Source of the DNA: an uncultured Acidobacteriota bacterium | Lineage (GTDB): Bacteria; Acidobacteriota; Thermoanaerobaculia; UBA5066; Gp7-AA6 | Length of the DNA stretch: 64,000 bases | Assembly (NCBI GenBank): GCA_963782815.1 | Contig: CAWALG010000032.1 | Span: forward strand, 65,072-129,071 | Reading direction: 5' to 3' | In this document: positions 18,561 to 64,000 of the stretch, in pieces | Layout of the letters: each line of letters begins with the position of its first letter | How positions within the stretch are numbered: the stretch's first letter is position 1 | Program-made: the position numbers and the translations under genes | Notes under the pieces: model-generated | What the model saw: only the letters and a program-made list of their open reading frames with translations | What the model was told of the DNA's origin: nothing | The model's database searches: none

Positions 18561-19243
18561 GCGTGGAAAGGTAAGCTTACAGCCCGCGCCGGCCTAGGTG
18601 CATTCTCATCAATCCAGGCGGGCAACCGCGCCAGGGAATCGAGAAGGGCATCGCGGTCCGCTCCGAGAAGCTCCTCCCGCGTGCGCGAGCCGGACGGCAC
18701 GAGGACGACGCGGCAGCCGGCTGCCCTGGCAAATTCCGAGTCCACTTCCATGTCCCCGACGACGAGCGTGTCGCCGGGCGGCGAGGCGACGGCCGCCATC
18801 AGCCGCCGGAGCATCGTCGGATCGGGCTTGGTCGGCGTCTCGCCGTCCGGCCCGGCGACCGCCCCGAAGAAATGGGCGACGCCGAGCGCCTCGAGGATCA
18901 TCCGCGAGAACCTCTCCGGCTTGTTCGAGGCGACCGCCATCGGATGGCCGCGTTCGGCCAGCTTCGCGAGGACCTCGGGCACGTCCGGCAGCAGGCGCGA
19001 CTTCTCGACGGCCACGGCCGGATAGCGCTCGCGGAAGAGCCGGACTCCTTCGAGAGCCCGCGCCGGGCCGACCGCCTTCCCGAGGAGCCTCTCGATTCCG
19101 TGACCGACCAGGACGCGCACCGCCTCGGGAGGCAGCGGCGGCTCCCCGAGGCGTTCCATCGCGTAGGCGAGCGCGTCTCCGATCGCGTCGTATCCGTCGA
19201 TGAGAGTCCCGTCCAGGTCGAAAACGACGAATGGCTTCGTCAT
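18557..19243 (-). CDS. HAD family hydrolase (phosphoglycolate phosphatase-like)
   Basis: Intact 228 aa. Motif I FDLDGTLID, ASNKP, GDMEVD. 4-nt overlap with serA. Confidence 0.8.
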   Translation of the reverse strand: MTKPFVVFDLDGTLIDGYDAIGDALAYAMERLGEPPLPPEAVRVLVGHGIERLLGKAVGPARALEGVRLFRERYPAVAVEKSRLLPDVPEVLAKLAERGHPMAVASNKPERFSRMILEALGVAHFFGAVAGPDGETPTKPDPTMLRRLMAAVASPPGDTLVVGDMEVDSEFARAAGCRVVLVPSGSRTREELLGADRDALLDSLARLPAWIDENAPRPARAVSLPFHA

Positions 19244-49602: not shown

Positions 49603-52176
49603 TCATGCGGCACGTCCCAGCTCGCGGTCCCTAGCAGCTGTAGCCCCGCGGCGATTTCGGATTGCCTTGAGCAGCTCGAACCAGGCGGTGCCGAGCGCGG
49701 CGGCGCCGACACAGATCGCGATGTCGGTCACGTGGAGGAAGTCGAAGCGGAACAAGACGCGCAGCGGTGGGACGTACAGCGTCGCTGCGAGGAAGGCGAG
49801 CGCCCCGCCGGTGATCCACCAGAGCGCCGGGTTGCGGGCGCCGTTGCCCGCGACCGAGGTCTTCCAGGAGCGGCTCGTGAAGATCAGCGCCAGATTGGAC
49901 AGGATGAGGATGGTGAAGGTGATGGCACGGGCTTTCAGCTCGCCGCGCCCGCCATAGTGCGCGATCGCGAACGCGCCGAGCAGGATCGCGGTGACGCTGA
50001 GACCGAGGGAGAGGCTGACGGCGATGAGCTTCCTACCGAACAGGCGGGCCGTGACCGCGCGCGGCGGGCGGCGCATCACGTCGGCTTCTTCCGGCTCGGC
50101 CTCGAACACGATCGAACACGCAGGATCGATGATGAGGTGCAGGAAGGCGATGTGGATCGGCATCAGCACCAGCGGCCAGCCGACGAGAATCGGAACGACT
50201 GTCAGGCCAAGGACCGGCAGGTGGACGGCGAGAATGTACGCCAGCGCCTTCTGCAGGTTGTCATAGACGCGGCGTCCGGTGCGCACGGCGAGCTCGAGCG
50301 AGGCGAAGTCGTCGTCGAGGAGCACGAGCTGGGCGGCTTCCCGCGCCACGTCGGTGCCGCGACCGCCCATCGCGATGCCGATGTGCGCGGCCTTGAGCGC
50401 CGGCGCATCGTTCACGCCGTCCCCGGTCATGGCCACGATCTCGCCTGTGGCCTTGAGGGCTTCGACAATGCGGAGCTTCTGCTCGGGCATGATGCGCGCG
50501 AAGACGTTCACCGAGCGAATGCGCCCGCGCAGCGACTCGTCATCCATTTCCGCCAGCTCTGCTCCGGTGATGACCACGGCATGCCTGTCGAGGCCGATCT
50601 GACGCGCGATGCTCTGCGCCGTCGCGGGGTAGTCGCCGCTGATCATGACCACGCGAATCCCGGCCGCGTGACACTCGTCGATCGCCGGGCGCACCGTAGG
50701 CCGCACCGGATCGGAGAGGCCGACGAGCCCGACGAACGCGAGCGAGAGCGCGCCAGGACCGTCGGGCGGGGCCGCGTCCGGGGCGAGCGCGCCTCGGGCA
50801 AGGGCCAGCACCCGAAGGCCGTCGGCCGCCATCAATCGCGCCGTGTCGCCGATCCACTGCGCTTCTGCGTCGCCGAGCCGGCAGAGGAGGGCCACGGCTT
50901 CCGGGGCCCCCTTGCAGGCGACGATGAGCTCCCCGCCTGCGGCGCGCCAGATCTGGATCACGGCCAGCCGCTCGCGCGTGAGCGGATACTCGCGGACCAG
51001 CATCCAATCGGGATGAAGGTGCTCGGTTCCAGCGAGCTGATCCTCGGCCAGGCGCTTGAACGCGACCTCCATCGGATCGAACGAATCCTTGCGGCTGGCC
51101 AGGACAGAATACTCAACGGCCGAGTGGAAGTCCTCCGGCAGCGGCTCTCGCGCGAGGCGTTCCACGTCGAAGGACGCGCCGTCGACGGCGAGGCGGCTCA
51201 CTGTCATTCGGTTTTGCGTGAGCGTGCCGGTCTTGTCGACGCACAGCACCGTCACCGAGCCCAGCGCCTCGACCGCGGGAATGCGGCGCGTAAGCACGCG
51301 CCGCCGGGAGAGCCGCCAGGCGCCAAGCGCGAGGAAGATCGTCACGACGACGGGAAACTCGTTGGGCAGGATCGCCATCGCGAGCGTCAGTCCGGCCAGG
51401 AGGCCGCGAAGCCAGTCGTGGCGCGTGAAACCGTAGACCACGACGACGAGGACGGACAGCGCGCCTGCCACGACCGCCAGCTTCCAAACGAGCCTCTTCG
51501 TCTCGCGCTGGAGCTGCGTCTGTTCGGTCATCGTGACGCCGAGGACGCGGCCGATCGCGCCCATCTCCGTGCGCTCCCCGGTCGCCGTGACCTGCGCGAT
51601 CGCGGCGCCCTGGACCACGAGCGTGCCGGCGTAGACGAACGGGAGACCTTCGCCTCCGGGGCGCCCGGACGCGCTCGCGGGGTCCCCTTCGGTCTTGGCG
51701 ACAGGAACCGACTCGCCCGTGAGCAGCGACTCATCGATGGTGCAATGACTCGTGGAAAGGACGACACCATCGGCCGCGACCCGGTCGCCCTCGCTCAGGA
51801 CGAGGACATCGCCGCGCACGACCTCGCGCCCGGCGATGCGCTGACGCCGGCCGTCGCGGATGACCATGGCGCGCGGGCTCGCCAGATCGCGCAGTGCCTC
51901 GATTGCGCTCTCGGTCTTGCGCTCCTGATACAGCGTGATGCCGACGATGAGGAACACGAACCCGAGCAGCATCAGCGCTTCCTGCCGATCCCCGAGGACG
52001 GAGTAGATGGCCCCGCACCCGATGAGCAGAGCCGTCATCGGCTCACGCACGACGTCGAGAAGGCCGCGCCAGAAGGTCCGGCCGCCGCCCGCCTGCAGCT
52101 CATTGGGGCCGTCGCTCCGCAGCCTCTCGGCGGCCTGGGAGGCCGAGAGGCCTGCGATCGTCTCTTTGTCGATCAT
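49603..52176 (-). CDS. cation-translocating P-type ATPase (Ca/Mg, P2-like)
   Basis: Intact 857 aa. N-terminal cation-ATPase-N (LSASQAAERLRSDGPNEL), CVDKTGTLTQNRM, MTGDGVNDAPALK. Confidence 0.9.
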   Translation of the reverse strand: MIDKETIAGLSASQAAERLRSDGPNELQAGGGRTFWRGLLDVVREPMTALLIGCGAIYSVLGDRQEALMLLGFVFLIVGITLYQERKTESAIEALRDLASPRAMVIRDGRRQRIAGREVVRGDVLVLSEGDRVAADGVVLSTSHCTIDESLLTGESVPVAKTEGDPASASGRPGGEGLPFVYAGTLVVQGAAIAQVTATGERTEMGAIGRVLGVTMTEQTQLQRETKRLVWKLAVVAGALSVLVVVVYGFTRHDWLRGLLAGLTLAMAILPNEFPVVVTIFLALGAWRLSRRRVLTRRIPAVEALGSVTVLCVDKTGTLTQNRMTVSRLAVDGASFDVERLAREPLPEDFHSAVEYSVLASRKDSFDPMEVAFKRLAEDQLAGTEHLHPDWMLVREYPLTRERLAVIQIWRAAGGELIVACKGAPEAVALLCRLGDAEAQWIGDTARLMAADGLRVLALARGALAPDAAPPDGPGALSLAFVGLVGLSDPVRPTVRPAIDECHAAGIRVVMISGDYPATAQSIARQIGLDRHAVVITGAELAEMDDESLRGRIRSVNVFARIMPEQKLRIVEALKATGEIVAMTGDGVNDAPALKAAHIGIAMGGRGTDVAREAAQLVLLDDDFASLELAVRTGRRVYDNLQKALAYILAVHLPVLGLTVVPILVGWPLVLMPIHIAFLHLIIDPACSIVFEAEPEEADVMRRPPRAVTARLFGRKLIAVSLSLGLSVTAILLGAFAIAHYGGRGELKARAITFTILILSNLALIFTSRSWKTSVAGNGARNPALWWITGGALAFLAATLYVPPLRVLFRFDFLHVTDIAICVGAAALGTAWFELLKAIRNRRGATAARDRELGRAA

Positions 52177-52560
52177 GTCTACCAGGGAACCGGGAGACCT
52201 GCGCCATCCCTCGACAACGGAATGAGGCGCCCGGTTCGCGGATGGATCGCGGCGCGCCCAGGGTGCACGCAGGCTATCCCGGGTTTCGTGCTCATTCGCC
52301 CGAAGATTAGCAGCAGGAAAGCGCCTTGCACAGTTCAGTCATCGATAAAGGGCGACCCGTGATCGCGGCGCGCTGCCAGGGTTCGGAATGCATTTGAATC
52401 AGGCGCGCGGGTCTTCGATCGCGGGGAAACTCGCAACGACGGGCGGGCGGCCCGCCAGGCTACGAGCGCCAGGAAGACATCCATTCCGGCGATCGGAAGA
52501 ATCGCCAGGAGCAGGACCGCCGCGTCCCTGCGCTCCCAGGCGCTGCCCCGGAAACGAAGC

Positions 52561-53037
52561 TCAATTCGGCGGGGCCGAGCCCTGACGCGAGGAGCGAAGC
52601 CGGGCCGCCGGCCGCGACGCCGCGACCAGCTTGCGCAGAATGGAAGAATCCGCCGGACGTGTCTCCTGAACCGAGGTCAGAATGTCGCTCAAGGACAGGA
52701 TTCCCACGAGCCTTCCGTCGCCGTCCACGACCGGCAGTCGCCGGATGTGCCCGTCCGCCATGACGCTCAACGCGTAGGTGAGATCGGTTCCCGGACCGCA
52801 GGTGAAGGGGTTCAGGGTCATGACCTCCCGCACGGGGATCGCCGCGGGAAACCGGTTCTTATGGGCCACGGCCAGGCAGACGTCTCGATCCGTGAGGATC
52901 CCGACGGGCCGGCCGGCGTTGTCGAGGACGGGAAGCGCTCCACAACCGTATTCCTGCATGGCCAGCGCGGCCGCCGCCAGGCTCGCGTCCGGCGTGCACG
53001 AATGGGCGGGAGAAGTCATCGCGTCTTGAACTCTCAT
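52561..53037 (-). CDS. CBS-pair domain protein
   Basis: MRVQDAMTSPAHSC.., ALPVLDNAGRPVGILTDRDVCL, IRRLPVVDGDGRLVGILSLSDIL. Start at ATG 53037 within ORF 52561..53325. Confidence 0.8.
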   Translation of the reverse strand: MRVQDAMTSPAHSCTPDASLAAAALAMQEYGCGALPVLDNAGRPVGILTDRDVCLAVAHKNRFPAAIPVREVMTLNPFTCGPGTDLTYALSVMADGHIRRLPVVDGDGRLVGILSLSDILTSVQETRPADSSILRKLVAASRPAARLRSSRQGSAPPN

Positions 53038-53058
53038 TGCGGACCTCCTGAGGCCCCC

Positions 53059-53102
53059 ATCGTCTCCCCCACCGCCCCTCCACGCATGATCCAGACGCAT
53101 CA
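53059..53102 (-). promoter_or_regulatory. operator/promoter site A: TGATGCGTCTGGATCA, 22 nt, GACGAT
   Basis: Palindrome at 53087-53102 and hexamer at 53059-53064. 21 nt (with AGGAGG) to the CBS ATG at 53037. Confidence 0.55.
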
Positions 53103-53136
53103 CAGGCTGCCGTGTCGCGCACGTACATGCAGGGCC

Positions 53137-53208
53137 GTCGAGAGTCAAGGGTCGAGAGTTCAGAGTTGAGCCCCCGGTTCTCTCGACTCTCGACTCTCGA
53201 CTCTCGAC
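53137..53208. repeat. heptad-repeat hairpin L5: 5 degenerate GTCGAGA units, short loop, 4 x TCTCGAC
   Basis: gtcgaga gtcaagg gtcgaga gttcaga gttgagc ccccggttc tctcgac x4, downstream of the acyl-CoA synthetase stop. Confidence 0.85.
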
Positions 53209-53252
53209 CTTCCCGTGAACGCAAATGGTTCCCGATTTAACACGATGCTGAA

Positions 53253-55970
53253 TCAGTAGGCGATGCGGCGAGACGGAGTGAGAGACGGCGGGCGTCCCAC
53301 GCGGATCCGGGCGTCCACGACGCACACGCCGCTCGTCAGGACCTTGACCGGGTTCAGATCCATCTCGCGCACCTCGGGGCAGTTCTCGATGAGGGCGGAG
53401 ACGCGCAGCAACATCTCCTTGAGAGCGGCCTCGTCTCCGCGCGGAGCTCCGCGGTAGCCGCGCAGGAGGGCGGTGCCCTTCACCTCATCGAGCATGGCGG
53501 CGACGTCCCTGTCGGTGAGCGGGTGGAGACGGAAGGCCACGTCGGCGACGAGCTCGACGAGAGTCCCGCCGCTGCCGTAGACGACGAGCGGTCCGAACGT
53601 CGGGTCCTGCGTGACGCCGACGAGGACTTCGACGCCGCCGGGCACCATGGCCTGGACGAGGAAATCGGTGAGGTCCGTGCCGAGCCGCTGCTTCAACTCG
53701 CGGCAGGCCGAGAGGACCGCGTCCTCGTCGGCCAGGTTCAGACGCACGCCGTCGACCTCCGTCTTGTGCAGGATCGCGGGGCCGACCGCTTTCACCGCGA
53801 CCGGAAACCCGAGCTCTTTCGCCGCGGCGGCCGCGGTGGTCTCGTCGCGGGCGAGGCGCATCGCCGCGACGGGAATCCCGAACGCGGTCAGGAGCGCTTC
53901 CGCCTCGAGCGGTCCGACCCATCCGCCGCTCCCCGCGAGCACCTTCGCGATGACCGCGCGGGCCCGGTCCACGGCGAGGCCCTCGAGAGCCGGCACCTTC
54001 CCCGGCGGCTGCCGGCGCCACTCCCCGTAGTCGGCGGCGCGGCCAAGCGCGATCGCGGCGGATTCGGGGAACGGGTAACAGGGGATCGCCGCCGACAGGA
54101 CCTGGGGCGTTCCCTTGGCGCTCATGAACGTCGCGAGGACGGGCTTTCGCGCCCCTTTCGTGCCTTCGACGATGGATGTGGCGACGGCCTCGGCCTGGCT
54201 CGCGATCGGCGGGATGAAGATCACCAGGACGCTGTCGAAATTCTCCTCGTCCAGCAGGATCCTCAACGCTTTCCGGTAGTGCTCCCCCGTCGCCGAGGCG
54301 ATCATATCCACCGGGTTGCCCACGCTCGCCGCCGCGCGGAAGAAACGGCGCGCAGCTTCGCGGCCGCGGCGGCGGACAGGAGCGGCAGCTCCAGCCCCTG
54401 CGCCTCGCAGGCATCGGCCGCGAGGATCCCCGGGCCGCCGGCGTTGGTAAGGATGCCGACGCGCCGGCCGAGGGGGACGGGCTGGTGCGCGAGAAGCGTG
54501 GCCACGTCGAAGAGCTCTTCGAGGGTCCCGGTCCGGATGACGCCCGCCTGCCGGAAAAGAGCGTCCACGACAGGATCGGACTCGGCAAGAGCGCCCGTAT
54601 GGGACGTGGCGGCGCGCGAGCCCGCGCGCGAGCGGCCGGCCTTGACCGCGATGATCGGCTTCTTGCGCGCGACGCGGCGCGCGATGCGGGAGAAGCGGAC
54701 GGGATTGCCGAAGCTCTCCAGGTACAGCAGGATCACGTCCGTGCGCGGGTCCTCGCTCCAGTACTGGATCAGGTCATTGCCGGAGACGTCCGCCTTGTTG
54801 CCGACGGAGACGAACGTCGAGATCCCGAGATTCAGCTTCGAGGCGTAGTCGAGCAGCGCCAGCCCGAGCGCTCCGCTCTGCGAGGAGAGGGCCACGCGGC
54901 CCTTCCGGCGGGTGCACGGGGCCGAACTGGGCGTCGAGGCGCACCTTCGGATCCGTGTTGATGAGCCCCATGCTGTTGGGCCCCACCATCCGGATCCCGG
55001 CGGCCCGGATCTTCTCGACGAGCACCGCCTCCCGCTGCCGGCCCTCCGTGCCCGTTTCCGAGAATCCCGCCGTGATCATGATGATCGCCTTGACGCCCTT
55101 GGCGACACACTCGTCCACGGCGGCTTCGACCCCCGCGGCGGGGATCACGATGACGGCGAGGTCCACGGCCCCCGGGTAATCCTCCAGGCGCGGATAGCAC
55201 CGGACACCCAGGATCTCCCCGGCGTTCGGATTGATCGGGACGAGCGTGCCCTGGAAGCCGTTGGAGACGAGGTTGAAGAAGAGCTCGGCGCCGATCTTCC
55301 CGCGTTCGCGGCTCGCCCCGAGCACGGCGACGACCTTCGGTTCGAAGAGGAGCTTCATCGAAGCCGCGGCCGCGCGCTCCGAGCGTTCGGCGTAGCTCTC
55401 CTCGAACCGGGGAGTCGGCGTCAGGGAGAAGACCATCTTCCCGACGCCCCCCTCGAATGTCTGCTTCAACTCGAACCCGCAGTTGCGGAAGACGCCGATC
55501 ATCCGCCGGTTCTGGGCGAGGACTTCCGCCTCGAAGATCTGGATCCCCCGGGCCCGCGCGATCTCGGCCAGCCTTTCCAGAAGGCGCGTTCCGATGCCCT
55601 GTCCCTGGAGCGCATCCTCGACCGTGAAGGCGGCCTCCGCGCGCTCGGGGCGCTTGTCGTTGCGGAAGAAGTGGGCGATGGCGACGATCCGGCCGGCGGT
55701 CTCTCCCACCAGAGCGAACGTGTTCTGGTAATCCACCTGGCAGACGCTCTCCGCCTTCTTGACGTTCAACTGAGGGACCGAGAAGAAGCGGAAGTAGAGG
55801 CTGTCGGGCGACAGCCGCTTGTAGAAGGCGAGGAGAGCCGCGGCGTCCTCCGGCCGGATCGGGCGAAGGCGCAGGGTGGACCCGGACTTCAGGACGACGT
55901 CGGATTCCTCCTGGGCGGGATAGCCGGCCGGAGGCTCCGCGGTGGTGCCGCCTGTGATTCTGGAAGACAT
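53253..55970 (-). CDS. GNAT N-acetyltransferase fused to ADP-forming acyl-CoA synthetase (two frame changes)
   Basis: N-terminal GNAT (ALQGQGIGTRLL), CoA-binding (VAVLGASRERGKIG), ligase-CoA (SQSGALGLALLD), ATP-grasp C-terminus. ORFs 54774..56993, 54302..54895 and 53253..54323 join near 54895 and 54320. Confidence 0.8.
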
Positions 55971-56103
55971 GAGAACCTCCCGCGGACAGGTTCTTGCAAT
56001 TTTGCGCCCGGGTGTTGATACGAACGGATCATACGGCACGCGAGCGTGCGCTCGTCCGCCTCGCCGGACCCCTCCGGCGACCCCTCGCCGGAACCAAGTC
56101 GTT

Positions 56104-56147
56104 TGATGCAGCTTGATCTGGTGATTCCCCCCGTGTCGGACGATGCT
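56104..56147 (+). promoter_or_regulatory. operator/promoter site B: TGATGCAGCTTGATCT, 22 nt, GATGCT
   Basis: Palindrome at 56104-56119 and hexamer at 56142-56147. 21 nt (with GGGGAGG) to the CBS ATG at 56169. Confidence 0.55.
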
Positions 56148-56168
56148 TTCTCCGGGGAGGAAGAACGC

Positions 56169-56627
56169 ATGAAGGTCGAAGCGCTCATGAACCCGCGGGT
56201 CAAATCCGCCGGGACGGACGCCTCCGTCGCCGACGTCGTCCTGATCATGGAGAAGTACGACTGCGGAACCGTCCCGATCCTGAACAAGGCCAACAAGCTC
56301 GTGGGAATCGTCACGGACCGGGACATCTGCCTCGGCCTCGGGTTCCGCCCGATTCCGGCGGCGGGGATACCCATCACCGACATCATGTCGAAGAAGGTCT
56401 ACGCCTGCTCTCCGGAAGAGGACGTCTCGGCCGCTCTTCAAACGATGCGCCAGCGGAAAGTCCGCCGGCTGCCCGTCATCGACTCCGACGGGCTGCTCGT
56501 CGGCATCCTCTCGATGGACGACGTGGTTCTCCGCGCGGAGGAGGACTTCGGAGAGACGGTCAGGACTCTGAAGGCCATCTACAGGCGGCCGGTCTCCAGG
56601 AAGGAGCCCGCAAGGCTCGAGGCCTGA
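56169..56627 (+). CDS. CBS-pair domain protein
   Basis: MKVEALMNPRVKSAG.., LVGIVTDRDICL, VRRLPVIDSDGLLVGILSMDDVVL, TLKAIYRRP. Close paralogue of 63084..63578. Confidence 0.85.
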   Translation: MKVEALMNPRVKSAGTDASVADVVLIMEKYDCGTVPILNKANKLVGIVTDRDICLGLGFRPIPAAGIPITDIMSKKVYACSPEEDVSAALQTMRQRKVRRLPVIDSDGLLVGILSMDDVVLRAEEDFGETVRTLKAIYRRPVSRKEPARLEA

Positions 56628-56682
56628 TCGACAACTCTCGAAGGTCCTCCGCCGCGGGCTCCCTGCGGAGGTAAGCCCCGCG

Positions 56683-57600
56683 ATGGCGGACGGCAGGCAT
56701 TCGATCGCCGCCGGGATCTGGCGGCTCGCCGATCCAAAGATCTCCCTCGCGTCCATGGCGTCGATGTTCCTCGGCGCCTGCGCCGCGGCGCGCGACGGAC
56801 CGCTCGACCCGGGATGGCTCGCGGTGACCGTCGCCGGAATCTTCGCGATCGAAGTCGCCAAGAATGCCTCGGGCGAGATCTTCGACTTCGATTCCGGCAC
56901 GGACCGCTCGGTCGCGCCCGAAGACCGGAGCCCCTTCTCCGGCGGAAAGCGCGTCCTGGTGGACGGGCTGCTGACACGGCGGGAGACGGCCACGGCAGCC
57001 GCCGTCTGCTATGCCGCCGGCGCCGCCTGCGGCCTCGCGATCGTGCTGCTCCGGGAGCCGAAGGTGTTCTGGCCGGGAGCCGCCGGGATGGCGTGCGCCT
57101 ACTTCTACCAGGCGCCGCCGCTCTCCCTCGCCTATCGCGGGCTGGGGGAAGCGGCCGTCGCGATCTGCTACGGTCCGCTGATCTGCTCCGGGACCTACCT
57201 CGTGCAGCGCGGCTCTCTGCCCGCGCCGATCCTCGCGCTCTCGGCGCCTCTGGGAATCCTGATCGCCGGCTTCCTCTGGATCAACGAGTTTCCGGACTTC
57301 CGCGCGGACCGCGCAGCCGGGAAACGGACTCTCGTCGTCCGGCTCGGACGCCGCGCCGCGAGCTTCGTCTTCATCGGCCTCATCGCGACCGCGGCTCTTC
57401 TGCTCCTCGCCGAGCCGTTGCTCGGCCTGCCCGAAGGTGTGTGGCTCGGCGCGCTCGGGCTCATTCCAGCGGCGCTGGCCGCCCGGACCGTCGCTCGAAA
57501 CTTCGACCGAACGGAGTTGATCGTCCCGGCACAGCGCCAGGCGCTCCTCGCGTTCCTCCTGCTGGCGATCGGTTCGGGACTCGGTTCCCTTCTTCTCTAG
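56683..57600 (+). CDS. UbiA family prenyltransferase (MenA-like)
   Basis: Intact 305 aa with 8-9 TM helices. NEFPDFRADRAAGKRT Asp-rich motif. Confidence 0.75.
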   Translation: MADGRHSIAAGIWRLADPKISLASMASMFLGACAAARDGPLDPGWLAVTVAGIFAIEVAKNASGEIFDFDSGTDRSVAPEDRSPFSGGKRVLVDGLLTRRETATAAAVCYAAGAACGLAIVLLREPKVFWPGAAGMACAYFYQAPPLSLAYRGLGEAAVAICYGPLICSGTYLVQRGSLPAPILALSAPLGILIAGFLWINEFPDFRADRAAGKRTLVVRLGRRAASFVFIGLIATAALLLLAEPLLGLPEGVWLGALGLIPAALAARTVARNFDRTELIVPAQRQALLAFLLLAIGSGLGSLLL

Positions 57601-57602
57601 AG

Positions 57603-57643
57603 AGCCCGGCCGAGGCGGCTGTCACTCAGGCTCGGCCGGCGCT
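57603..57643. terminator. stem-loop between convergent genes
   Basis: ccggccgag (57606-57614) pairs with ctcggccgg (57631-57639). The right arm overlaps the 3' end of the USP gene. No U-tract. Confidence 0.35.
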
Positions 57644-58138
57644 CTTGCGGCGCGGCGTCCGTCTCTTCGTGGCCATGCGCTTCTGCCCTTGCGCGGGACC
57701 AACCGTCATCACCGGGCAGGGCGCGGCGGCGATGACCTTCTGCGCCACGCTGCCGAGGAGGAAGCGGAAGAAACCGCTGCGGCCGTGCGTGCCGATGACG
57801 ATCAGGTCGGCGTGAATCTTCGCGGCCGCCTCGGTGATCCCGGAGTGCGCAATCCCGCGCAGGACCAGACCCGTGGCCTTCACCCCCTGCTTTCGGGCGG
57901 CTTCCACGAGAGGCGCGAGGCTCTTTTCGGCTCCCGCCCGCAGGGCCTCCTCGATCTCGTCGTAGAGCCCCGGAGAAGCGATGTAGCTCCCGAAGGAAGC
58001 GGCGCCCGGAGGCTCGTAGACGTGCACGAGGGTGAGCTCCGCGCCTTCCGAGCCGGCGACCCTGACCGCCTGGGCCACCGCGGGCGCCGAGGCCGGAGAG
58101 AAATCCGTCGCGGCGAGGATACGGCTCAGAATTCCCAT
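57626..58138 (-). CDS. universal stress protein
   Basis: MGILSRILAATDFSPAS.., DLIVIGTHGRSGFFRFLLGSVAQKV. Start at ATG 58138 within ORF 57626..58267. Confidence 0.8.
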   Translation of the reverse strand: MGILSRILAATDFSPASAPAVAQAVRVAGSEGAELTLVHVYEPPGAASFGSYIASPGLYDEIEEALRAGAEKSLAPLVEAARKQGVKATGLVLRGIAHSGITEAAAKIHADLIVIGTHGRSGFFRFLLGSVAQKVIAAAPCPVMTVGPAQGQKRMATKRRTPRRKSAGRA

Positions 58139-58230
58139 GGCTGGCTCTCCTTTCTGCTCGGGCGCCCTGCCGGCGGGAAGGACACGATGATAGCGATGAA
58201 GAGTGTCGCGCTCGCGGGAAGAACTCGTCC

Positions 58231-58274
58231 TGATGCGAACAAATCTATCGGCGCGGCCTCCTGTCAACTAGACT
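58231..58274 (+). promoter_or_regulatory. operator/promoter site C: TGATGCGAACAAATCT, 22 nt, TAGACT, 6 nt, GTG
   Basis: Palindrome at 58231-58246 and TAGACT at 58269-58274. The GTG start of the tandem USP is at 58281. Confidence 0.6.
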
Positions 58275-58280
58275 TTCGCC

Positions 58281-59225
58281 GTGAGGATCCTGGCCGCGAC
58301 AGACGGCTCCAGGACATCCGGAGCCGCCGTTCGGTTTGCCGCCGTGGTGGCCGCGAAGTGCAGCAGGGGCAGCCTCACCGTGATCACCGTCGGGCGACTC
58401 CCATCGCGGAGGTGGCTCGCGCGTCCTCGGCCCGGCCGGTTGGAATCCCCGATCGAGGAAAAGGAGCTCGCCTGGTCCGAGCGAGTCCTGGAGAGGGGCC
58501 GACGCGACGCGCAGCGGCTCGGGGCGCGTGTTCGTACCGCGTATGCGGGGACGAACCGGCTCGAGCCGATCGCCGAGACGATCGCCCGCGCCGGCGTCCG
58601 CGACGGGGCGGACCTCGTCGTCGTCGGCAGCGGCGGAGCGAAGGAGCTCCTTCGCTACACTCTTGGCAGTATCACGCACCGGCTCGTGCATGTGTCCCGG
58701 CTCCCGGTCGCGGTCGTGCGCGCCGACGCGAGGACCGCCCGGAGCCCGATCCGGATCCTCGCCTCGACCAACGGATCGAAGCCGTCCCGGGCGGCGGTGG
58801 CCTTCGCCGCGCGCCTGGCCGCCGCGATCCCCCGAGCCCGGCTCGTCGTCCTGACGGTCTCGACTCTCGCGGCCGACATCGCGCTCACGGGGGCCACGTT
58901 CGTGCATGCGTTGGGAGTGCTGCCGGATCTCGAGCGCGCGGAGCGGGAGGCCGCGGACAGGATTCTCCGGGCGGCGGCGAAGGAAACGCGCAAGCTCGGC
59001 AAACGCGTGCGGTTCGTCTACCGGAAACCGGGCCGCCCGACGCGGGCGGCGCAGACCATCGTCCGGGAAGCCGCGCGCCAGGCATCGGACCTGATCGTGC
59101 TCGGCAACACAGGAAGGAGCGCGGTCAACGACCTCGTCCTCGGCAGCGTGGCTCAGCGCGTCCTCGATCTGTCCCACCGGCCCGTCGTTCTCGTGCGGGC
59201 TTCTTCCTCGAGAGGAAGACGATGA
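58281..59225 (+). CDS. tandem (two-domain) universal stress protein
   Basis: Intact 314 aa with two Usp halves (RILAATDGS.. and IRILASTNGS..), each ending G..G......LGS(I/V). Confidence 0.8.
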   Translation: MRILAATDGSRTSGAAVRFAAVVAAKCSRGSLTVITVGRLPSRRWLARPRPGRLESPIEEKELAWSERVLERGRRDAQRLGARVRTAYAGTNRLEPIAETIARAGVRDGADLVVVGSGGAKELLRYTLGSITHRLVHVSRLPVAVVRADARTARSPIRILASTNGSKPSRAAVAFAARLAAAIPRARLVVLTVSTLAADIALTGATFVHALGVLPDLERAEREAADRILRAAAKETRKLGKRVRFVYRKPGRPTRAAQTIVREAARQASDLIVLGNTGRSAVNDLVLGSVAQRVLDLSHRPVVLVRASSSRGRR

Positions 59226-60262
59226 TCCTGTTCCGCGACCGCCAGGATGCCGGGCGGGCGCTCGCGCGGCGGCTCATGTTCTACGCCGGCCGGTCCGACG
59301 TCACGGTCCTCGCTCTCCCCCGCGGCGGCGTGCCGGTCGCTCTCCAGGTCGCTCAGGCCCTGAACGCTCCTCTGGACGTCTTCCTCGTGCGCAAGCTCGG
59401 CCTTCCCGGCCACAAGGAACTGGCCATGGGAGCCATCGCCTCGGGAGGCGTCCGTGTCCTCGATCCCGTCATCCTGCGCGAGTACCATGTGTCCAAGGGG
59501 GAAGTCGTCCGCGTCACGGCGGTCGAGCTGAAGGAGTTGAAGCGCCGCGAGACCGCCTATCGCGCCGGGCGGCCTCCGCTCGACGTGAGAGGCCGCACCG
59601 TCATCCTGGTGGACGACGGGCTGGCCACCGGGTCCTCGATGCGTGCCGCGGTCGAGGCCCTCGCGCCGCTGTCGCCGGCTCGCGTCGTCGTCGCCGTCCC
59701 GGTCGCCCCTCACTCGACGGTCCTCCTGCTCGAGAGGCTGACCAACGAGGTCGTGTGCCTGGCGACGCCGGAGCCCTTTCTCGCCGTCGGAATGTTCTAT
59801 GAGGAATTCGAGCAGATCAGTGACGAGCAGGTCCGTGATCTTCTGGCTTGCGCGGACCCGCCGCCGGAAGCCGACAAGGAGAACTCCATGCGCAATCGCC
59901 AGGTCCCGCGAACGGAGTGGTACCGGTTCTTCCGAGATTTCTCACGGCGCCACGAGGACTGGCTCGTCACGGTTCGGGTCATGAACCCCGACCTCGGGTC
60001 GCAGGTCGAATCGAGCGATCTCCCGCTCGAGGGGATCGTCGCCGATCATGCCGGCCGCGGTCCGATCGCGATTCACGTGGGCCGGTCTCCGCAACACCAC
60101 GTCGAACACGAGGTGCCCGATCCGCGGCAGGTCTGGGTCGAGCTCTCCCCGGAGGGCGCGGAAGAAGCGGTCGAGATCGAGTCAGAGGACGGGACGAAGA
60201 CCATCGTACAGTTCCACGCGGCCTCCCTCCCGCGGGAAGTGGACGGCATTCTTCGCCCGTAG
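59222..60262 (+). CDS. phosphoribosyltransferase domain protein continuous in frame with a DUF5335-like C-terminal module
   Basis: PRPP loop VILVDDGLATGSS. From the internal ATG at 59888: MRNRQVPRTEWYRFFRDFSRRHEDWLVTVRV.. (family name from memory). No stop between the two parts. ATG overlaps the USP stop (ATGA). Confidence 0.65.
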   Translation: MILFRDRQDAGRALARRLMFYAGRSDVTVLALPRGGVPVALQVAQALNAPLDVFLVRKLGLPGHKELAMGAIASGGVRVLDPVILREYHVSKGEVVRVTAVELKELKRRETAYRAGRPPLDVRGRTVILVDDGLATGSSMRAAVEALAPLSPARVVVAVPVAPHSTVLLLERLTNEVVCLATPEPFLAVGMFYEEFEQISDEQVRDLLACADPPPEADKENSMRNRQVPRTEWYRFFRDFSRRHEDWLVTVRVMNPDLGSQVESSDLPLEGIVADHAGRGPIAIHVGRSPQHHVEHEVPDPRQVWVELSPEGAEEAVEIESEDGTKTIVQFHAASLPREVDGILRP

Positions 60263-60624
60263 CGGCGGCCCGGGACCTCGTGCTCCAACGCCGGGAAGAC
60301 GCCGGGCGCTCTCAACCGTTCGGATCTTCAGGAGGCTCCGGTCCGCTCCCTCCGGTGACGGGAGCAGAAGACCCCGTCGTGGCGCCGGAACCGGCACTGC
60401 TGAGGATGTCCGTTGGCGGCCAGGAAGACGACGGCGATGCAGCGCTCGTTGGGCGGCAGGAAGATCGAGCGTCCTCGCCGAGTCTGGATTGCGCTCCGGA
60501 TCCCCTGCTGCGCCACCGCGGCTCCACGATGGATGCCGTCCCGGGTCGATGCCCGAACGCTCTCGGCTCCCATCTTCCGCCCCCCAACCAATCCTTCCGT
60601 TCGGGACTCCGCTCTCCCTCTTCG

Positions 60625-61266
60625 TCAGTCCTCGACGAAGGGATTGTGAATGATGATCCGCTGGCCTCCCTGCTTCTGGACGATCTCCCGGAGAGCGGCG
60701 GCCAATTCCCGGCGCAAAGGAGCAGAGCCCTCCTCCTCGGCACAGAGAACCATGTCGGTCAGCGACACGACACCCTCGAGAAGCCCCTGCGCGCCGATGA
60801 CAGGGAGGTGCCGGATCCGGCGGGATCGCATGGCCCTCAGGGCATTCAGGACGTCCTCTCCGGTCTCACACGTCGCGGGCGGGCCGCTCATCGCGTCGCG
60901 GACGAACATGTCGCTCAACCGGCGGTGACTGGTCGATCCGAGCAGGCAGATGTCGCCGTCCGTCACGACGCCGATCGGACGCCCGCTGCCGTCCACGACC
61001 GGAAGGAAACGGCAGTCCGCCTCGAACATCGCGATCGCCGCCGCGGCCAGCGTGTCTTCCGGACGACAGGACCGGACGTTTCGCGTCATGATGTCACGCA
61101 CGCGACAGGAGGGAGAGTCGCCGGGCTGGCGGCGCGCATTCCCTTCAGCGGCCTGCGGTTCCTGACCCGGCCCGGAGGGGAGCCGTTCCCCCGCCGCCTC
61201 CTGCCCTACCCCGAGAGAACGGCAAGGATCATTGATGCTCATGCCGGTTCTCATCGAACCCTCCAC
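60625..61266 (-). CDS. CBS-pair domain protein (start uncertain)
   Basis: VRDIMTRNVRSC.., FLPVVDGSGRPIGVVTDGDICL, IRHLPVIGAQGLLEGVVSLTDMVL. Confidence 0.75.
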   Translation of the reverse strand: MEGSMRTGMSINDPCRSLGVGQEAAGERLPSGPGQEPQAAEGNARRQPGDSPSCRVRDIMTRNVRSCRPEDTLAAAAIAMFEADCRFLPVVDGSGRPIGVVTDGDICLLGSTSHRRLSDMFVRDAMSGPPATCETGEDVLNALRAMRSRRIRHLPVIGAQGLLEGVVSLTDMVLCAEEEGSAPLRRELAAALREIVQKQGGQRIIIHNPFVED

Positions 61267-61281
61267 TTTCCGCGGCCCGGA

Positions 61282-61957
61282 TCAGCTCCAGGGATCGACG
61301 GACAAGTGGTCCTTCACCTCGTGAACTCCGGGAGCGTGACTGACTGTTCCCAGGACCGAGTTCTTCTCCGGCCAGGTCCGGACCTTGCCTTCGAGCGTAA
61401 CGGTATCCCCGTCGATGTTGACGCTGATCCTCTCCGCTTCCCGCTCCGCCTCGAGCTCGAGCGCGTCTTCGATGGATCGGCGGAGGACTTGCGGATCGAC
61501 GGTGGTCGCGCGAGACCTCGAGGAGGTTGTGAACGCTCTGGACGCCCGCGAGGACCCGCACGACCCGCTCCGCGTCCTCCTTCTCGCGCGGCGTCGAAAC
61601 CTCTCCCTCGAGCGTGACCCGGCCCTCGGAGACCGCCGAGCGGATCTTCCTGTCGGGCAGGAACGGGTCCCATTCGAGCGTGAGCCGGACGGTCCTCGCG
61701 ATGTCGCCGTCCGTTCTCTGCGGAACCCCCGGCGAATGGACCTGGATTTCGTCGGCCACTCTGAGGACGCCGATCACCCGGAGCGCCGCCCCCCGGGCGG
61801 CGTGTTTCCTCGACTCGCCGTCCACCGTTCCCGTCAGGGTCACGATGCCGCCACTCACCTCGATGCCGATCTCGGCCCCGTCCACCCGGGAGTCCCACTG
61901 GAGCTCGCGCAGGACGTCCTGCTGAATCTCCTGGTCGGTCCTGGCCGCAACAGGCAT
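61282..61957 (-). CDS. BON domain (OsmY-like) protein, three BON repeats (one frame change)
   Basis: GIVTLTGTV, GRVTLEGEV. After a shift near 61500: GDTVTLEGKV..HEVKDHLSVDPWS*. Confidence 0.7.
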
Positions 61958-62060
61958 GGCAGCCTCCTCCTGCCAGGCTCGCTCGCGCCCCGCTGCTCTG
62001 GCCTGCCGGGCGCGACGCTCGCCGGCTCGGACATGATGAGAGAAAACGGGACTCTCCGCA

Positions 62061-62104
62061 TGATTCGCCTACATCATTCCGGGCGCCGCGGGACGGGATA
62101 GGAT
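62061..62104 (+). promoter_or_regulatory. operator/promoter site D: TGATTCGCCTACATCA, 22 nt, TAGGAT, 6 nt, GTG
   Basis: Palindrome at 62061-62076 and TAGGAT at 62099-62104. The GTG start of the USP is at 62111. Confidence 0.6.
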
Positions 62105-62110
62105 CGGCGC

Positions 62111-62548
62111 GTGGCGCGAGGCCGGATCCGGATCCTCGTCGGCGTGGACTTCTCCCGCGAGTCGCTGGGCGCCCTGCGCGCCGCTCGGGCGCTCGCGGCG
62201 AAGGTCGGGGGCCATATCACCCTGACTCACGTCCGCCCGACCTCCAACACGCGGGCGGCCGTCGTCGAGGATCGCGGAGACCTCCTGCGCCGGCCGGCGG
62301 CCGCGCTCTCCGCCGCGATGGCGGACCACTACGAGCGCCGTCTCGCGAGGCTGCGGCTCCGAGGCTCGAACGAAGACGTGCTCCTGCTGCGCGGCGCCGC
62401 GGCTCCGGCTCTCTGCCGCCGGGCGGGCCGCGGCTACGACCTGCTCGTCCTCGGGGAGCGCGGGCGAGGCCGTGTCGCGGCGTTCCTGCTCGGCAGCACC
62501 GTCCAGGAAACGATCGCCCGTTCGCCGATTCCGGTCATGGTGGCCTGA
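62111..62548 (+). CDS. universal stress protein
   Basis: Intact 145 aa. RILVGVDFSRES.., DLLVLGERGRGRVAAFLLGSTVQE. Confidence 0.8.
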   Translation: MARGRIRILVGVDFSRESLGALRAARALAAKVGGHITLTHVRPTSNTRAAVVEDRGDLLRRPAAALSAAMADHYERRLARLRLRGSNEDVLLLRGAAAPALCRRAGRGYDLLVLGERGRGRVAAFLLGSTVQETIARSPIPVMVA

Positions 62549-62662
62549 CGAGCCGGGCCTTCGCCGGTGCGTTTGGCTCATGACCCCGGAGCGGTTCCGG
62601 TTCATCATTCCGGAAGGCGCCGACCGCCTCTGAGCGGACCGGCGACGCCGAAGGAGATCTCG

Positions 62663-63100
62663 ATGCTGCAGATCCACCTGCTCGACATGGCGCCGTCGCC
62701 GGCGGTCGAAGCCCGGATCCGGCGATGGGGCGACCGGCTGTCACGCTACTCCGAGGAGATCCAGAACTGCCAGGTGTGGGTCGAGTCCCCGCACGGTCAC
62801 CACCGCAAGGGAGACCTGTACGGCGTTCGCATCCGGCTGACGGTGCCCGGGGAGGAGCTTTCCGTGGATCTCCAGCCGAGCGAGGAGGACGTGCACCTCT
62901 CCATCCGGAAGGCGTTCGACGCCGCGCGGCGCAAGCTCCAGGACTACGAGCGCCGGCGTCGCGGCCAGGTCAAGGCCCACCCTCGCGCGCCCGGCGACGT
63001 CTCCCGCAGGAGGCAGGTCCCCGCGCGGCGGGACCGCGAGGACCGCGGTCTGAAGTTCTCAGGCGGAGGAGGAGCGGCCGGCTCTACGGGTGAGCGATGA
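62663..63100 (+). CDS. HPF/RaiA-like ribosome-associated protein (tentative)
   Basis: MLQIHLLDMAPSPAVEARIRRWGDRLSRY..VWVESPH..YGVRIRLTVPGEELSV..IRKAFDAARRKLQDY. Low-complexity basic tail, so the 3' end is uncertain. Confidence 0.5.
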   Translation: MLQIHLLDMAPSPAVEARIRRWGDRLSRYSEEIQNCQVWVESPHGHHRKGDLYGVRIRLTVPGEELSVDLQPSEEDVHLSIRKAFDAARRKLQDYERRRRGQVKAHPRAPGDVSRRRQVPARRDREDRGLKFSGGGGAAGSTGER

Positions 63101-63578
63101 GCTCCTTCCTGGCGTCGGGGCGCTCGTAGATCGCCTTCAGGGTGTCCACGGTCGGCCCGTAACCAAGCTCGCCGTTCTCCTCGATCCTCTCCACTTTCCC
63201 GTTCTCGGCGTGAAGAACGACATCGTCCATGGAGAGAATCCCGACGAGCCGCCCATCGCCGTCGAGGACGGGCAGGCGCCGCACCTTCTTGTTCTTCATC
63301 GTTTCGAGGGCGTCGAGGACATCCTCCTCGGGACTGCAGGCGTACACACCCCTGGACATCACGTCCGTCACGGCAATCCTGGCCGCGGGAAGCCGGCGCG
63401 GTCCCAGCGCAAGACAGATGTCCCGGTCGGTGATCATGCCGACGACTCTGTTCTCCGGATCGACGACGGGAACCGCGCCGCATTCGTTCGCCTCCATGAT
63501 CACGACGACTTGCGCCACGGAGGCGTCCGTGCCGGCGGACTTCACATCGGAGATCATCAGCGACTGGACGTTCATCAC
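63084..63578 (-). CDS. CBS-pair domain protein
   Basis: Intact 164 aa. VVGMITDRDICL, VRRLPVLDGDGRLVGILSMDDVVL, TLKAIYERP. Confidence 0.85.
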   Translation of the reverse strand: MMNVQSLMISDVKSAGTDASVAQVVVIMEANECGAVPVVDPENRVVGMITDRDICLALGPRRLPAARIAVTDVMSRGVYACSPEEDVLDALETMKNKKVRRLPVLDGDGRLVGILSMDDVVLHAENGKVERIEENGELGYGPTVDTLKAIYERPDARKELIAHP

Positions 63579-63595
63579 CCACCTCCCCGGGCCGC

Positions 63596-63639
63596 ATCGT
63601 GTTTGGGTCCTGCGCGGTTCGCCAGATTCAGGCGCATCA
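63596..63639 (-). promoter_or_regulatory. operator/promoter site E: TGATGCGCCTGAATCT, 22 nt, CACGAT
   Basis: Palindrome at 63624-63639 and hexamer at 63596-63601. 17 nt (with GGGGAGG) to the CBS GTG at 63578. Confidence 0.55.
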
Positions 63640-63733
63640 ATCGGCGGCGTCGGGTCGGGAGCTGATGAAAACGGCCCATGCGAAACCCGGCCGGAGCGAG
63701 CAGGATATGAGGGACGGCGGCGCGGGAGGAGCC

Positions 63734-64000
63734 ATGACGAAATCAGACTCGGGCCCCGTCGTTGCGACCGAGTACTGGCACCGGCTCGAGGACGGCCGGA
63801 TTCAGTGCGATGTGTGTCCGCGGTTCTGCGCGCTGCGGGAAGGTCAGCGCGGCCTCTGTTTCGTGCGCGCCCGGCAGGACGACCGGATCGTCCTGACGAC
63901 CTACGGGAGATCGAGCGGGTTCTGCGTCGATCCGATCGAGAAGAAGCCGCTCCACCACTTCCTCCCCGGGACAGCGGTCCTCTCCTTCGGCACGGAAGGC
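63734..64000 (+). CDS. radical SAM activase-like protein, N-terminal fragment (AmmeMemoRadiSam-type, tentative)
   Basis: Own translation: MTKSDSGPVVATEYWHRLEDGRIQCDVCPRFCALREGQRGLCFVRARQDDRIVLTTYGRSSGFCVDPIEKKPLHHFLPG. The gene continues past the window edge. Confidence 0.55.
   Translation, partial: MTKSDSGPVVATEYWHRLEDGRIQCDVCPRFCALREGQRGLCFVRARQDDRIVLTTYGRSSGFCVDPIEKKPLHHFLPGTAVLSFGTEG

Follow-up and report, generated by a model that had tools for sequence, protein, structure and literature searches.

A conserved 16-bp palindrome in the promoters of clustered stress genes of an uncultured acidobacterium and its candidate PAS-LuxR regulator

Bacteria of the phylum Acidobacteriota, which rank among the most abundant in soil, grow slowly and are difficult to culture; to our knowledge, little has been established about their entry into and exit from low-activity states. 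We analyzed a stretch of 64,000 nucleotides (the window) from an uncultured member of this phylum (assembly GCA_963782815.1, contig CAWALG010000032.1, positions 65,072 to 129,071), in which positions 49,603 to 64,000 (the island) encode CBS-pair proteins, universal stress proteins (USPs), a BON-domain protein, a protein resembling hibernation promoting factor (HPF), a phosphoribosyltransferase (PRTase), a P-type ATPase and an acyl-CoA synthetase (ACS) fused to a GNAT domain. As described below, the window probably holds part of a chromosomal regulon cluster, activated via a 16-bp palindrome by a one-component regulator with a PAS domain and a LuxR-type DNA-binding domain (PAS-LuxR).

The GC content of the window is flat, at 68-70% throughout. 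Because high GC makes mechanical lists of open reading frames (ORFs) noisy, genes were called by combining codon-position GC with Pfam. A preliminary description made from the letters alone had named the families of the island, and every one of them scored above its Pfam gathering cut-off (Table 1). Three genes were missing from that description, namely a MenA-like UbiA-family gene, a small conserved ORF (orf87) and a radical S-adenosylmethionine (radical-SAM) gene at the window end. The island comprises about 10 transcription units: ATPase; CBS1; GNAT-ACS; CBS2-MenA-like; USP1; USP2x-PRTase; BON-CBS3-orf87; USP3-HPF; CBS4; and radical-SAM with what lies beyond. The other 49.6 kb of the window hold serA, genes for molybdenum cofactor and riboflavin synthesis, a thiolase, an acyl-CoA synthetase, short-chain dehydrogenases/reductases (SDRs) and an extracytoplasmic function (ECF) sigma factor. 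When a six-frame translation of these 49.6 kb was searched with the island proteins using phmmer, no homologue of the USP, CBS, BON, HPF or PRTase proteins was found. USP and CBS genes make up 7-8 of the approximately 15 island genes versus none detected in the remainder of the window. The ECF sigma factor is the sole regulator in the left flank of the island, and it is unconnected to the palindrome sites.

Table 1. Genes and operator-like sites of the island, with the outlying site upstream of serA. Positions are those of the 64-kb window; hexamers are predicted -10 boxes, and (-) marks those on the minus strand.
Feature	Positions	Strand	Assignment and details
ATPase	49603-52176	-	Type-II (Ca/Mg-like) P-type cation ATPase, 857 aa; Pfam E1-E2_ATPase, Cation_ATPase_N/C, Hydrolase
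O1	52386-52401		GAATGCATTTGAATCA; 210 bp upstream of ATPase; matrix score 12.9; weak
ATPase relic	52469-52537	-	5' end of a different P-type ATPase gene, 69 bp; translates to ERRDAAVLLLAILPIAGMDVFL
CBS1	52561-53037	-	CBS-pair protein 1; Pfam CBS x2, 1.9e-32
O2	53087-53102		TGATCCAGACGCATCA; for CBS1; exact TGAT-N8-ATCA; score 22.9; GACGAT at 53059-53064(-)
ACS	53253-55970	-	GNAT::ADP-forming acyl-CoA synthetase; Pfam GNAT, CoA_binding, ligase-CoA, ATP-grasp_5
O3	56016-56031		TGATACGAACGGATCA; for ACS; exact match; score 23.5; GAACCT at 55988-55993(-)
O4	56104-56119		TGATGCAGCTTGATCT; for CBS2-UbiA operon; score 14.8; GATGCT at 56142-56147
CBS2	56169-56627	+	CBS-pair protein 2; Pfam CBS x2
Prenyltransferase	56683-57600	+	UbiA-family, MenA-like; Pfam UbiA 1.9e-30
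USP1	57626-58138	-	Single-domain USP; Pfam Usp 1.3e-33
O5	58231-58246		TGATGCGAACAAATCT; between divergent USP1 and USP2x-PRTase; score 18.2; TAGACT at 58269-58274
USP2x	58281-59225	+	Tandem two-domain USP; Pfam Usp, 2 stretches
PRTase	59222-60262	+	TT1426-like PRTase fused to C-terminal DUF5335; Pfam Pribosyltran + DUF5335
orf87	60328-60591	-	Small conserved ORF, 87 aa, three Cys and several His; no Pfam match
CBS3	60625-61266	-	CBS-pair protein 3; Pfam CBS x2, 2.7e-25
BON	61282-61957	-	BON protein; Pfam BON x2 as sequenced, x3 when reconstructed
O6	62061-62076		TGATTCGCCTACATCA; between divergent BON-CBS3 and USP3-HPF; exact match; score 21.6; TAGGAT at 62099-62104 and CATCAT at 62033-62038(-)
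USP3	62111-62548	+	USP; Pfam Usp 1.5e-22
HPF	62663-63100	+	HPF/RaiA-like protein; Pfam Ribosomal_S30AE 9.1e-09
CBS4	63084-63578	-	CBS-pair protein 4; Pfam CBS x2, 2.1e-30
O7	63624-63639		AGATTCAGGCGCATCA; for CBS4; score 15.0; CACGAT at 63596-63601(-)
O8	63663-63678		Weaker; faces radical-SAM gene; score 8.0; CAGGAT at 63701-63706
Radical-SAM	63734-64000 (cut by window end)	+	AmmeMemoRadiSam-system radical-SAM enzyme; NCBIfam TIGR04337, 8.3e-44
serA site	18596-18611		AGGTGCATTCTCATCA; operator-like, half-degenerate; upstream of serA; score 11.2; TACCTT at the expected -10 offset

Several gene products could be assigned more closely. The best NCBIfam match of the ATPase was a PMR1/SERCA-type Ca-ATPase, under the equivalog cut-offs, and that of the prenyltransferase was to a 1,4-dihydroxy-2-naphthoate polyprenyltransferase-like model, likewise under cut-off. 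The two close CBS paralogues noticed in the preliminary description are CBS2 and CBS4, which are 61% identical (BLASTP) and share the motifs quoted there. The true start of CBS3 may lie at 61089. The PRTase matched PDB entry 1wd5 (2.7e-40), is 54-57% identical to mycobacterial homologues, and has a start codon that overlaps the stop codon of USP2x (ATGA). For the HPF-like protein, whose ORF opens at 62567, the Ribosomal_S30AE match was weak but significant (36.4 bits vs a cut-off of 23.7), and there was no NCBIfam match. The TIGR04337 match of the truncated radical-SAM gene covers the first 76 model positions; the full orthologue in a related locus, L084 (related loci are given L numbers throughout), encodes 372 aa and has the Radical_SAM domain. 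orf87 is conserved in L084, L098 and L081 (54-65% amino acid identity).

Two island genes, ACS and BON, are frameshifted as sequenced. Relative to three intact orthologues, ACS carries one extra base at 54899 (+1) and two at 54345-54346 (+2), which place 184 well-conserved codons out of frame and create an in-frame TGA at 54774-54776. Similarly, a +1 insertion at 61510 in the BON gene, compared with the intact orthologues of L082 and L098, abolishes the third BON domain. The out-of-frame segments of both genes show no other damage, and we therefore regard the indels as assembly or sequencing errors or very recent lesions. Thus, the predicted triple-BON protein has three BON domains once the extra base at 61510 is removed and two as it stands, and the GNAT and synthetase domains of ACS are all present in a gene that reads through only after its two indels are removed. 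The corrected ACS (approximately 904 aa) matched the NCBIfam acetate-CoA ligase alpha domain with 506 bits, slightly below the cut-off of 567, as well as a mycobacterial-Pat-like GNAT. The catalytic His loop SHTGAL is retained in the corrected frame, and the domain set is that of an ADP-forming acetyl-CoA synthetase/Pat-type acetyltransferase, so that the protein is predicted to act either as a synthetase or as an acyltransferase. Between the ACS stop and the CBS1 promoter, four tandem copies of CTCTCGA face an inverted partner (53137-53208; arms 86% complementary, loop of 14 nt) and may form a terminator-like hairpin.

To compare the locus with related genomes, the corrected ACS protein was used as a synteny anchor. 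The best matches were in metagenome-assembled genomes (MAGs) of Acidobacteriota/Thermoanaerobaculia (95, 92, 90 and 85% amino acid identity), which bears out the earlier guess of an Acidobacteria-like lineage; as judged from the sequence, the host is a Thermoanaerobaculia-like, uncultured soil acidobacterium. The four closest loci (L084, L082, L098 and L081, in the order of these identities) possess the same island and the same left flank as the window, consisting of an SDR, a bPH/SHOCT gene, the ECF sigma factor, an unknown gene, a second SDR and a CarboxypepD_reg protein. At 73-79% identity, ACS still lies beside CBS, USP, PRTase, ATPase, HPF and BON genes in shuffled order, and below approximately 65% identity (other Thermoanaerobaculia, Vicinamibacterales and Blastocatellia) it is mostly found without these neighbours. 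Thus, the genes remain clustered, with some shuffling, across a Thermoanaerobaculia subclade, in keeping with the preliminary description. In L084 the island extends beyond the point where the window stops, and this extension comprises the complete radical-SAM gene, one more USP, an SDR, a small ORF and a fifth CBS gene. Local rearrangements involve the ATPase: the window-type ATPase lies at the opposite island end in L081, L082 and L098, and L084 has a different ATPase after CBS1. The 69-bp relic in the window is 85% identical at the DNA level to the N-terminal transmembrane region of the ATPase encoded after CBS1 in L084, L092 and L083, indicating gene replacement or translocation at the ATPase/CBS1 junction.

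The HPF-like gene forms an operon with a CBS-pair gene, with overlapping stop and start codons, in L087, L090, L091 (16500-17340) and L093, an overlap that predicts translational coupling; in the window, HPF and CBS4 are adjacent and convergent. Further, the islands of relatives also hold MgtC/DUF4010, PfkB (pfkB in L087), OsmC and GGDEF genes. In L091 (19548-20900), three more palindromes surround a MerR-type gene and a gene for an MtrC/MtrF-like multihaem cytochrome. The PRTase was also tried as a synteny anchor; it was too widespread (Planctomycetota, Cyanobacteria, Actinomycetota and others) and yielded no close relative. In 31 of the 80 PRTase-anchored loci (L001-L080), among them loci of Cyanobacteria, Actinomycetota and Planctomycetota, at least one of the USP, CBS, HPF, BON, P-type ATPase and ACS families is represented within 10 kb, which points to an association of the TT1426-like PRTase with these stress families much older than the island.

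No tRNA gene was found in the window, an Rfam scan of the window, including the long leader of the ATPase gene, yielded no credible riboswitch or other RNA element, and there was no integrase among the flanking ORFs scanned. A horizontally acquired island was considered and rejected, as neither a compositional shift, nor an integrase or tRNA boundary, nor a patchy presence was seen. Because of the flat GC, the lack of these elements and the syntenic flanks, the sequence identifies the island as a lineage-specific chromosomal gene cluster and not as a recently acquired or mobile one.

The preliminary description had linked the island genes by a shared palindrome. This element is real, conserved and located in promoters. 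It is a 16-bp inverted repeat with a 7-2-7 layout, TGATGCRWWYGCATCA (consensus TGAT-G-C-R-W-W-Y-G-C-ATCA). Three exact copies of TGAT-N8-ATCA are present in the 64 kb, versus 0.23 expected, and all are in intergenic DNA of the island. In the subclade, 71 exact sites were found in 33 related ACS-anchored loci, almost all of them 40-120 bp upstream of ACS, CBS, USP, BON, HPF, PRTase or ATPase genes, and the palindrome is conserved upstream of orthologous genes in approximately 20 related MAGs. When the window was scanned with a scoring matrix built from the relatives' exact sites, and thus trained on the same clade, eight matches scored above 10 versus 0.54 in shuffled sequences. The top seven, in descending order O3, O2, O6, O5, O7, O4 and O1 (Table 1), are all intergenic and all in the island. 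Nearly every island promoter has a palindrome, and three sites lie between divergent genes. When the DNA upstream of ACS was aligned for the window together with 22 relatives (23 sequences), the palindrome and the ribosome-binding site were the only conserved blocks.

Orthologous sites were found for most of the operators. Those corresponding to O2 lie upstream of CBS1 in L083-L096, O4 was also aligned in L084, L082, L098 and L081, and O5 has counterparts in L084 (7785) and L081 (9207); orthologues of O6 are present in L081, L082, L084 and L098. L084 further has paired sites (3710 and 3746) at the same junction as O7 and O8. The eighth match, the site at 18596 upstream of serA (Table 1), lies outside the island, and serA may be an outlying member of the regulon. 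The window was also searched for the FNR box (TTGAT-N4-ATCAA, up to 2 mismatches), and this candidate was rejected: matches were scattered over the window and unrelated to island promoters. The match at 63627, which overlaps O7, alone coincides with a mapped operator, and the others in the island range lie in genes or in the USP1 leader. Since the palindrome is conserved and lies in promoters, co-regulation of the island genes is predicted.

To describe the promoters, we oriented site-gene pairs of the clade towards the gene (n = 70). A hexamer of the form nAnnnT (TAGACT, TAGGAT, TAGAGT, TATGTT, CACGAT, GAACCT and others) occupies offsets 31-36 from the palindrome centre, so that a -10-like hexamer lies exactly 22 nt downstream of the site. 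The combination of A32 and T36 was present in 59% of gene-facing flanks, versus 0-6% at most other offsets and 19% at an adjacent offset. This geometry is shown by 9 of the 11 gene-facing flanks of the window; the ATPase flank does not fit, and that of USP1 fits only with a 1-nt shift. With the hexamer taken as the -10 box, the centre of the palindrome falls at about -42, the position of a class II activator, and the palindrome takes the place of a -35 box. The predicted -10 boxes of USP3 (62099) and USP2x (58269) end 6 nt before the respective GTG codons. Because the predicted start sites coincide with the start codons of USP3 (GTG 62111), USP2x (GTG 58281) and serA (ATG 18560), the sequence suggests that these three genes have leaderless mRNAs.

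A candidate for the protein that reads the palindrome came from the islands of relatives. Unannotated ORFs beside their palindromes encode proteins of approximately 220 aa with PAS and GerE (LuxR-type helix-turn-helix, HTH) domains (Pfam PAS/PAS_9 + GerE). By tblastn, PAS+GerE genes lie inside island loci L087 (two), L090, L091 (two), L093, L094, L100, L101, L112 and L141, counted as 9 island loci; these are relatives with 63-79% identity, and the genes in L087, L091, L094 and L101 include tandem PAS-LuxR paralogues. No PAS-LuxR homologue was found by tblastn in the 64-kb window. Genome scans showed that each of the four closest relatives has the regulator in its MAG, where the gene is located 16-56 kb from the island, in a USP-regulator(-regulator) operon with the same palindromes. 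For example, the contig of L084 has a USP gene followed by two PAS-LuxR genes (locus L191), approximately 16 kb past the island end at which the radical-SAM gene lies; palindromes precede the USP gene and the second regulator gene, and also occur further along. In nearly all of the 40-odd regulator loci, a site lies ahead of the USP gene that precedes the regulator, at a distance of 540-750 bp from the latter. The motif density in ACS loci was 2.1 per 10 kb in MAGs with the regulator versus 0.04 per 10 kb in those without it.

We also examined distant homologues (36-48% identity) on seven unrelated metagenomic contigs (31-69% GC, 26 kb in total). On five of these contigs the regulator gene is directly flanked by a site scoring 17-26.5, and on a sixth by a weak one; approximately 0.1 would be expected from background. 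In L219 (880-1016), the palindrome lies just downstream of the regulator gene and upstream of a NiFe-hydrogenase small subunit, and in L222 (1767-1846) the arrangement is regulator, regulator, operator, CBS; the regulators of these two contigs show 46-48% identity. The family as a whole comprises 767 homologues at E<=1e-5 and 92 clusters (50% identity) at E<=1e-30, all with generic names only. Our literature search found no publication on the family, nor any on a USP/CBS regulon in Acidobacteriota.

The regulators have an N-terminal PAS and a C-terminal GerE domain within approximately 200-250 aa, as do members of the PAS-LuxR class, and the HTH is homologous to those of LiaR, VraR, NarL and DosR (DosR at E 3e-5). 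An AlphaFold2 model from a diverse alignment reached a pLDDT of 90.6, with the PAS-LuxR factors VqmA (with DNA) and EL222 as top structural matches; it replaced a first model from a shallow alignment of close relatives (pLDDT 65). Among 43 diverse members, W30, C50, C65 and C69 are invariant and H119 is conserved in at least 90%. This Cys3-His set fits a metal site, for Zn or Fe-S. A four-Cys, NreB-like cluster had been considered and was dropped, because the first Cys of that set, though present in the close clade, is unconserved in distant homologues.

The candidate regulator resembles PAS-LuxR proteins such as PimM and PteF of Streptomyces, VqmA of Vibrio and EL222 of Erythrobacter in domain order and size. 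However, its sequence identity to known members is just 15-17%. The known members sense 3,5-dimethylpyrazin-2-ol (DPO), blue light (FMN) or unknown ligands and control antibiotic clusters or quorum sensing, whereas the present family has the invariant Cys3(+His), is devoid of the LOV-type NCRFLQ motif, and is predicted to control stress genes. PimM binds a 16-bp palindrome, CTVGGGAWWTCCCBAG, at the -35 region (PMC9774167), with the same length, 7-2-7 layout and WW centre as the palindrome described here. Thus, operator geometry and co-localisation agree with a PAS-LuxR-type 16-bp inverted repeat overlapping the -35 region, as far as geometry in the sequence can indicate.

The preliminary description had likened the island to the DosR (DevR) regulon of Mycobacterium tuberculosis. 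The gene content supports this parallel. The published regulon contains the USPs Rv1996, Rv2005c, Rv2623 and Rv3134c, together with Rv2626c, ctpF/Rv1997, Rv0079, Rv0571c and pfkB (PMC3177182). The same families (USPs and the relatives of the CBS protein Rv2626c, CtpF, Rv0079 and Rv0571c) stand under one palindromic operator in the island, and pfkB is also in the island of L087. Dev boxes lie 23-93 bp from start codons, with the proximal box at the -35 region (PMC3177182), and the operator described here is likewise predicted to overlap the -35 region; in both systems the DNA-binding domain is of the NarL/LuxR (GerE) type. A further shared feature is an autoregulated USP-regulator operon, Rv3134c-devRS in M. 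tuberculosis and, by prediction, USP-PAS-LuxR in the relatives examined here. On the other hand, the parallel does not extend to DosR/DosS or the Dev box. DosR is a response regulator with a REC domain served by the haem-GAF kinases DosS and DosT, whereas a one-component PAS-LuxR protein is predicted here, and no REC domain or kinase accompanied the candidate regulator in the ORFs scanned (PAS+GerE only). The Dev box is 20 bp long with a GGGACT core (PMC3177182), unlike the 16-bp operator TGATGCRWWYGCATCA, and the genes are scattered in M. tuberculosis and contiguous in this member of the Acidobacteriota.

The lxa locus of Burkholderia cenocepacia comprises 50 genes, among them six for USPs as well as genes for BON-type 'phospholipid-binding' proteins and for a cation ATPase; it has an FNR-like palindrome at 17 intergenic points and has been shown experimentally to be required for anoxic survival (PMC3721108). 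It shares with the island the contiguous multi-gene layout, the USP, BON and cation ATPase families, and one short palindrome recurring between genes. In contrast, lxa uses a TGA-N6-TCA FNR/Anr-like motif and CRP-family regulators, whereas the sites here are TGAT-N8-ATCA; its metabolic complement is different, and no emphasis on CBS, HPF or PRTase proteins is reported for it. Because of the type of the candidate regulator (no REC domain or kinase in the ORFs scanned, not of the CRP family) and the operator, the island appears to belong to neither system. It looks like a third, independently built version that works like these low-oxygen regulons.

In the mechanism that we propose, a dimeric PAS-LuxR activator would bind the palindrome and recruit RNA polymerase from the class II position (about -42), a single site often driving two divergent promoters, and the regulator would control its own synthesis through the USP-regulator operon. 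By analogy, the signal would be redox, oxygen or energy status. The Cys3-His PAS domain, the hydrogenase and multihaem cytochrome targets in relatives, and the gene families shared with two low-oxygen regulons argue for such an input. The output would be a low-activity survival state, in which HPF would contribute to ribosome hibernation, CBS pairs and USPs to adenylate sensing, BON to envelope protection, the ATPase to ion homeostasis, and GNAT-ACS to acyl-CoA/ATP interconversion or protein acylation. A label of hypoxia or dormancy would thus draw on analogy and indirect hints. Since strict anaerobes occur among the Thermoanaerobaculia, the response could have either sign, to hypoxia or to oxygen exposure.

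Several points weigh against this mechanism. The trigger could be oxygen exposure or starvation instead of hypoxia, and the Cys3-His site could be a structural zinc site rather than a sensor. The regulator lies outside the window, and its presence in this genome is extrapolated from relatives. Its co-occurrence with the motif is confounded by phylogeny, and the matrix is derived from the same clade, which the test with distant homologues removes only partly. The geometry of the sites is the basis of both the -10 assignment and the predicted activator role, and O1, a weak site at 210 bp from the ATPase, has no -10-like hexamer at the expected offset. To these are added the frameshifts in ACS and BON described above.

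Among other explanations, the PAS-LuxR protein could be a repressor or a dual regulator, with the palindrome occluding promoters until a signal releases it. In the ACS promoters, TA always precedes the site, forming TATGAT, a possible -10 box overlapped by the operator, and autoregulated operons are common among repressors. However, the TA extension is confined to the ACS-facing orientation of divergent sites; activation from about -42 is favoured, whatever the gene class, by the nAnnnT at a constant 22 nt downstream and by the lack of a -35 match; and PimM, VqmA, EL222 and DevR are activators. We consider repression or dual regulation unlikely for these reasons. Alternatively, a CRP/FNR-family protein could bind the palindrome, in which case the PAS-LuxR genes would merely be members of the regulon. 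Written as TGATG-N6-CATCA, the palindrome spans 16 bp, as does a CRP site, its centre is near the -41.5 typical of FNR/CRP class II promoters, and the lxa locus combines TGA-N6-TCA with Anr-like regulators (PMC3721108). However, the inner bases G5, C6 and R7 are also conserved, giving the 7-2-7 pattern with a WW centre of NarL, DosR and PimM and not a 5-6-5 pattern. Further, no protein with a cNMP-binding domain or Crp-type HTH was found among approximately 50 ORFs scanned in the window and related islands, a non-exhaustive survey, and on unrelated short contigs the motif accompanies PAS-LuxR genes. Binding by a CRP/FNR-family protein therefore has little probability in our view. That the island was acquired horizontally, or that paralogous families lacking common regulation piled up by chance, could be argued from the large size of the USP and CBS families and from the ATPase, which varies in position among close relatives and left the relic of another at 52469-52537, but it is highly improbable, being already contradicted by the operators conserved across relatives, and it is opposed by the uniform composition, the missing tRNA, RNA-element and integrase signals, the synteny of island and flank in four related MAGs, and the concentration of USP and CBS genes in the island.

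Activation by the PAS-LuxR regulator thus accords best with the operators, their promoters and the regulator loci. A bolder proposal, which we put forward as doubtful, is that PAS(Cys3-His)-LuxR proteins are a new family of metal/Fe-S redox or oxygen sensors acting as a dormancy master switch, and that the CBS-pair and HPF-like proteins are adenylate-sensing hibernation factors. In archaea, ribosome hibernation factors that bind adenylates include CBS-module proteins (Sri, Dri) and CBS-HPF fusions (HibA/AHA) (PMC13324472, PMC13454478). As in these, CBS modules are tied to HPF/RaiA in the relatives, through the HPF-CBS operons of L087, L090, L091 and L093, and the PDB matches of CBS4 include MJ1225, archaeal Sri chains and Rv2626c; the second-best match, 9znf, is an accession mentioned in the Sri paper. 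In contrast, the archaeal proteins have four tandem CBS domains, with HPF fused in HibA, whereas one CBS pair and a separate HPF are encoded here. The island CBS proteins are therefore not members of the HibA/Sri group, having two CBS domains rather than four and no HPF fusion. In the published survey, most bacterial CBS matches fall outside the Sri/HibA clades.

What is new here is the operator consensus, the promoter geometry and the candidate regulator family. Together they describe the locus as a concrete regulon, with a defined 16-bp operator, a promoter architecture and a small candidate sensor-regulator, whose gene set converges on the families that serve anoxic persistence in M. tuberculosis (DosR) and Burkholderia (lxa). 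This convergence suggests that USP, CBS, HPF, BON, PRTase and P-type ATPase genes are a recurrent survival toolkit that is wired to different oxygen or redox sensors in each phylum. With the operator as a marker, the regulon can be traced across hundreds of MAGs and in metatranscriptomes from soil. If the bolder proposal is true, the PAS(Cys3-His)-LuxR switch would reach beyond Thermoanaerobaculia, as distant homologues have the same operator beside hydrogenase and CBS genes, and the CBS-pair and HPF-like proteins would be a bacterial counterpart of archaeal HibA/Sri.

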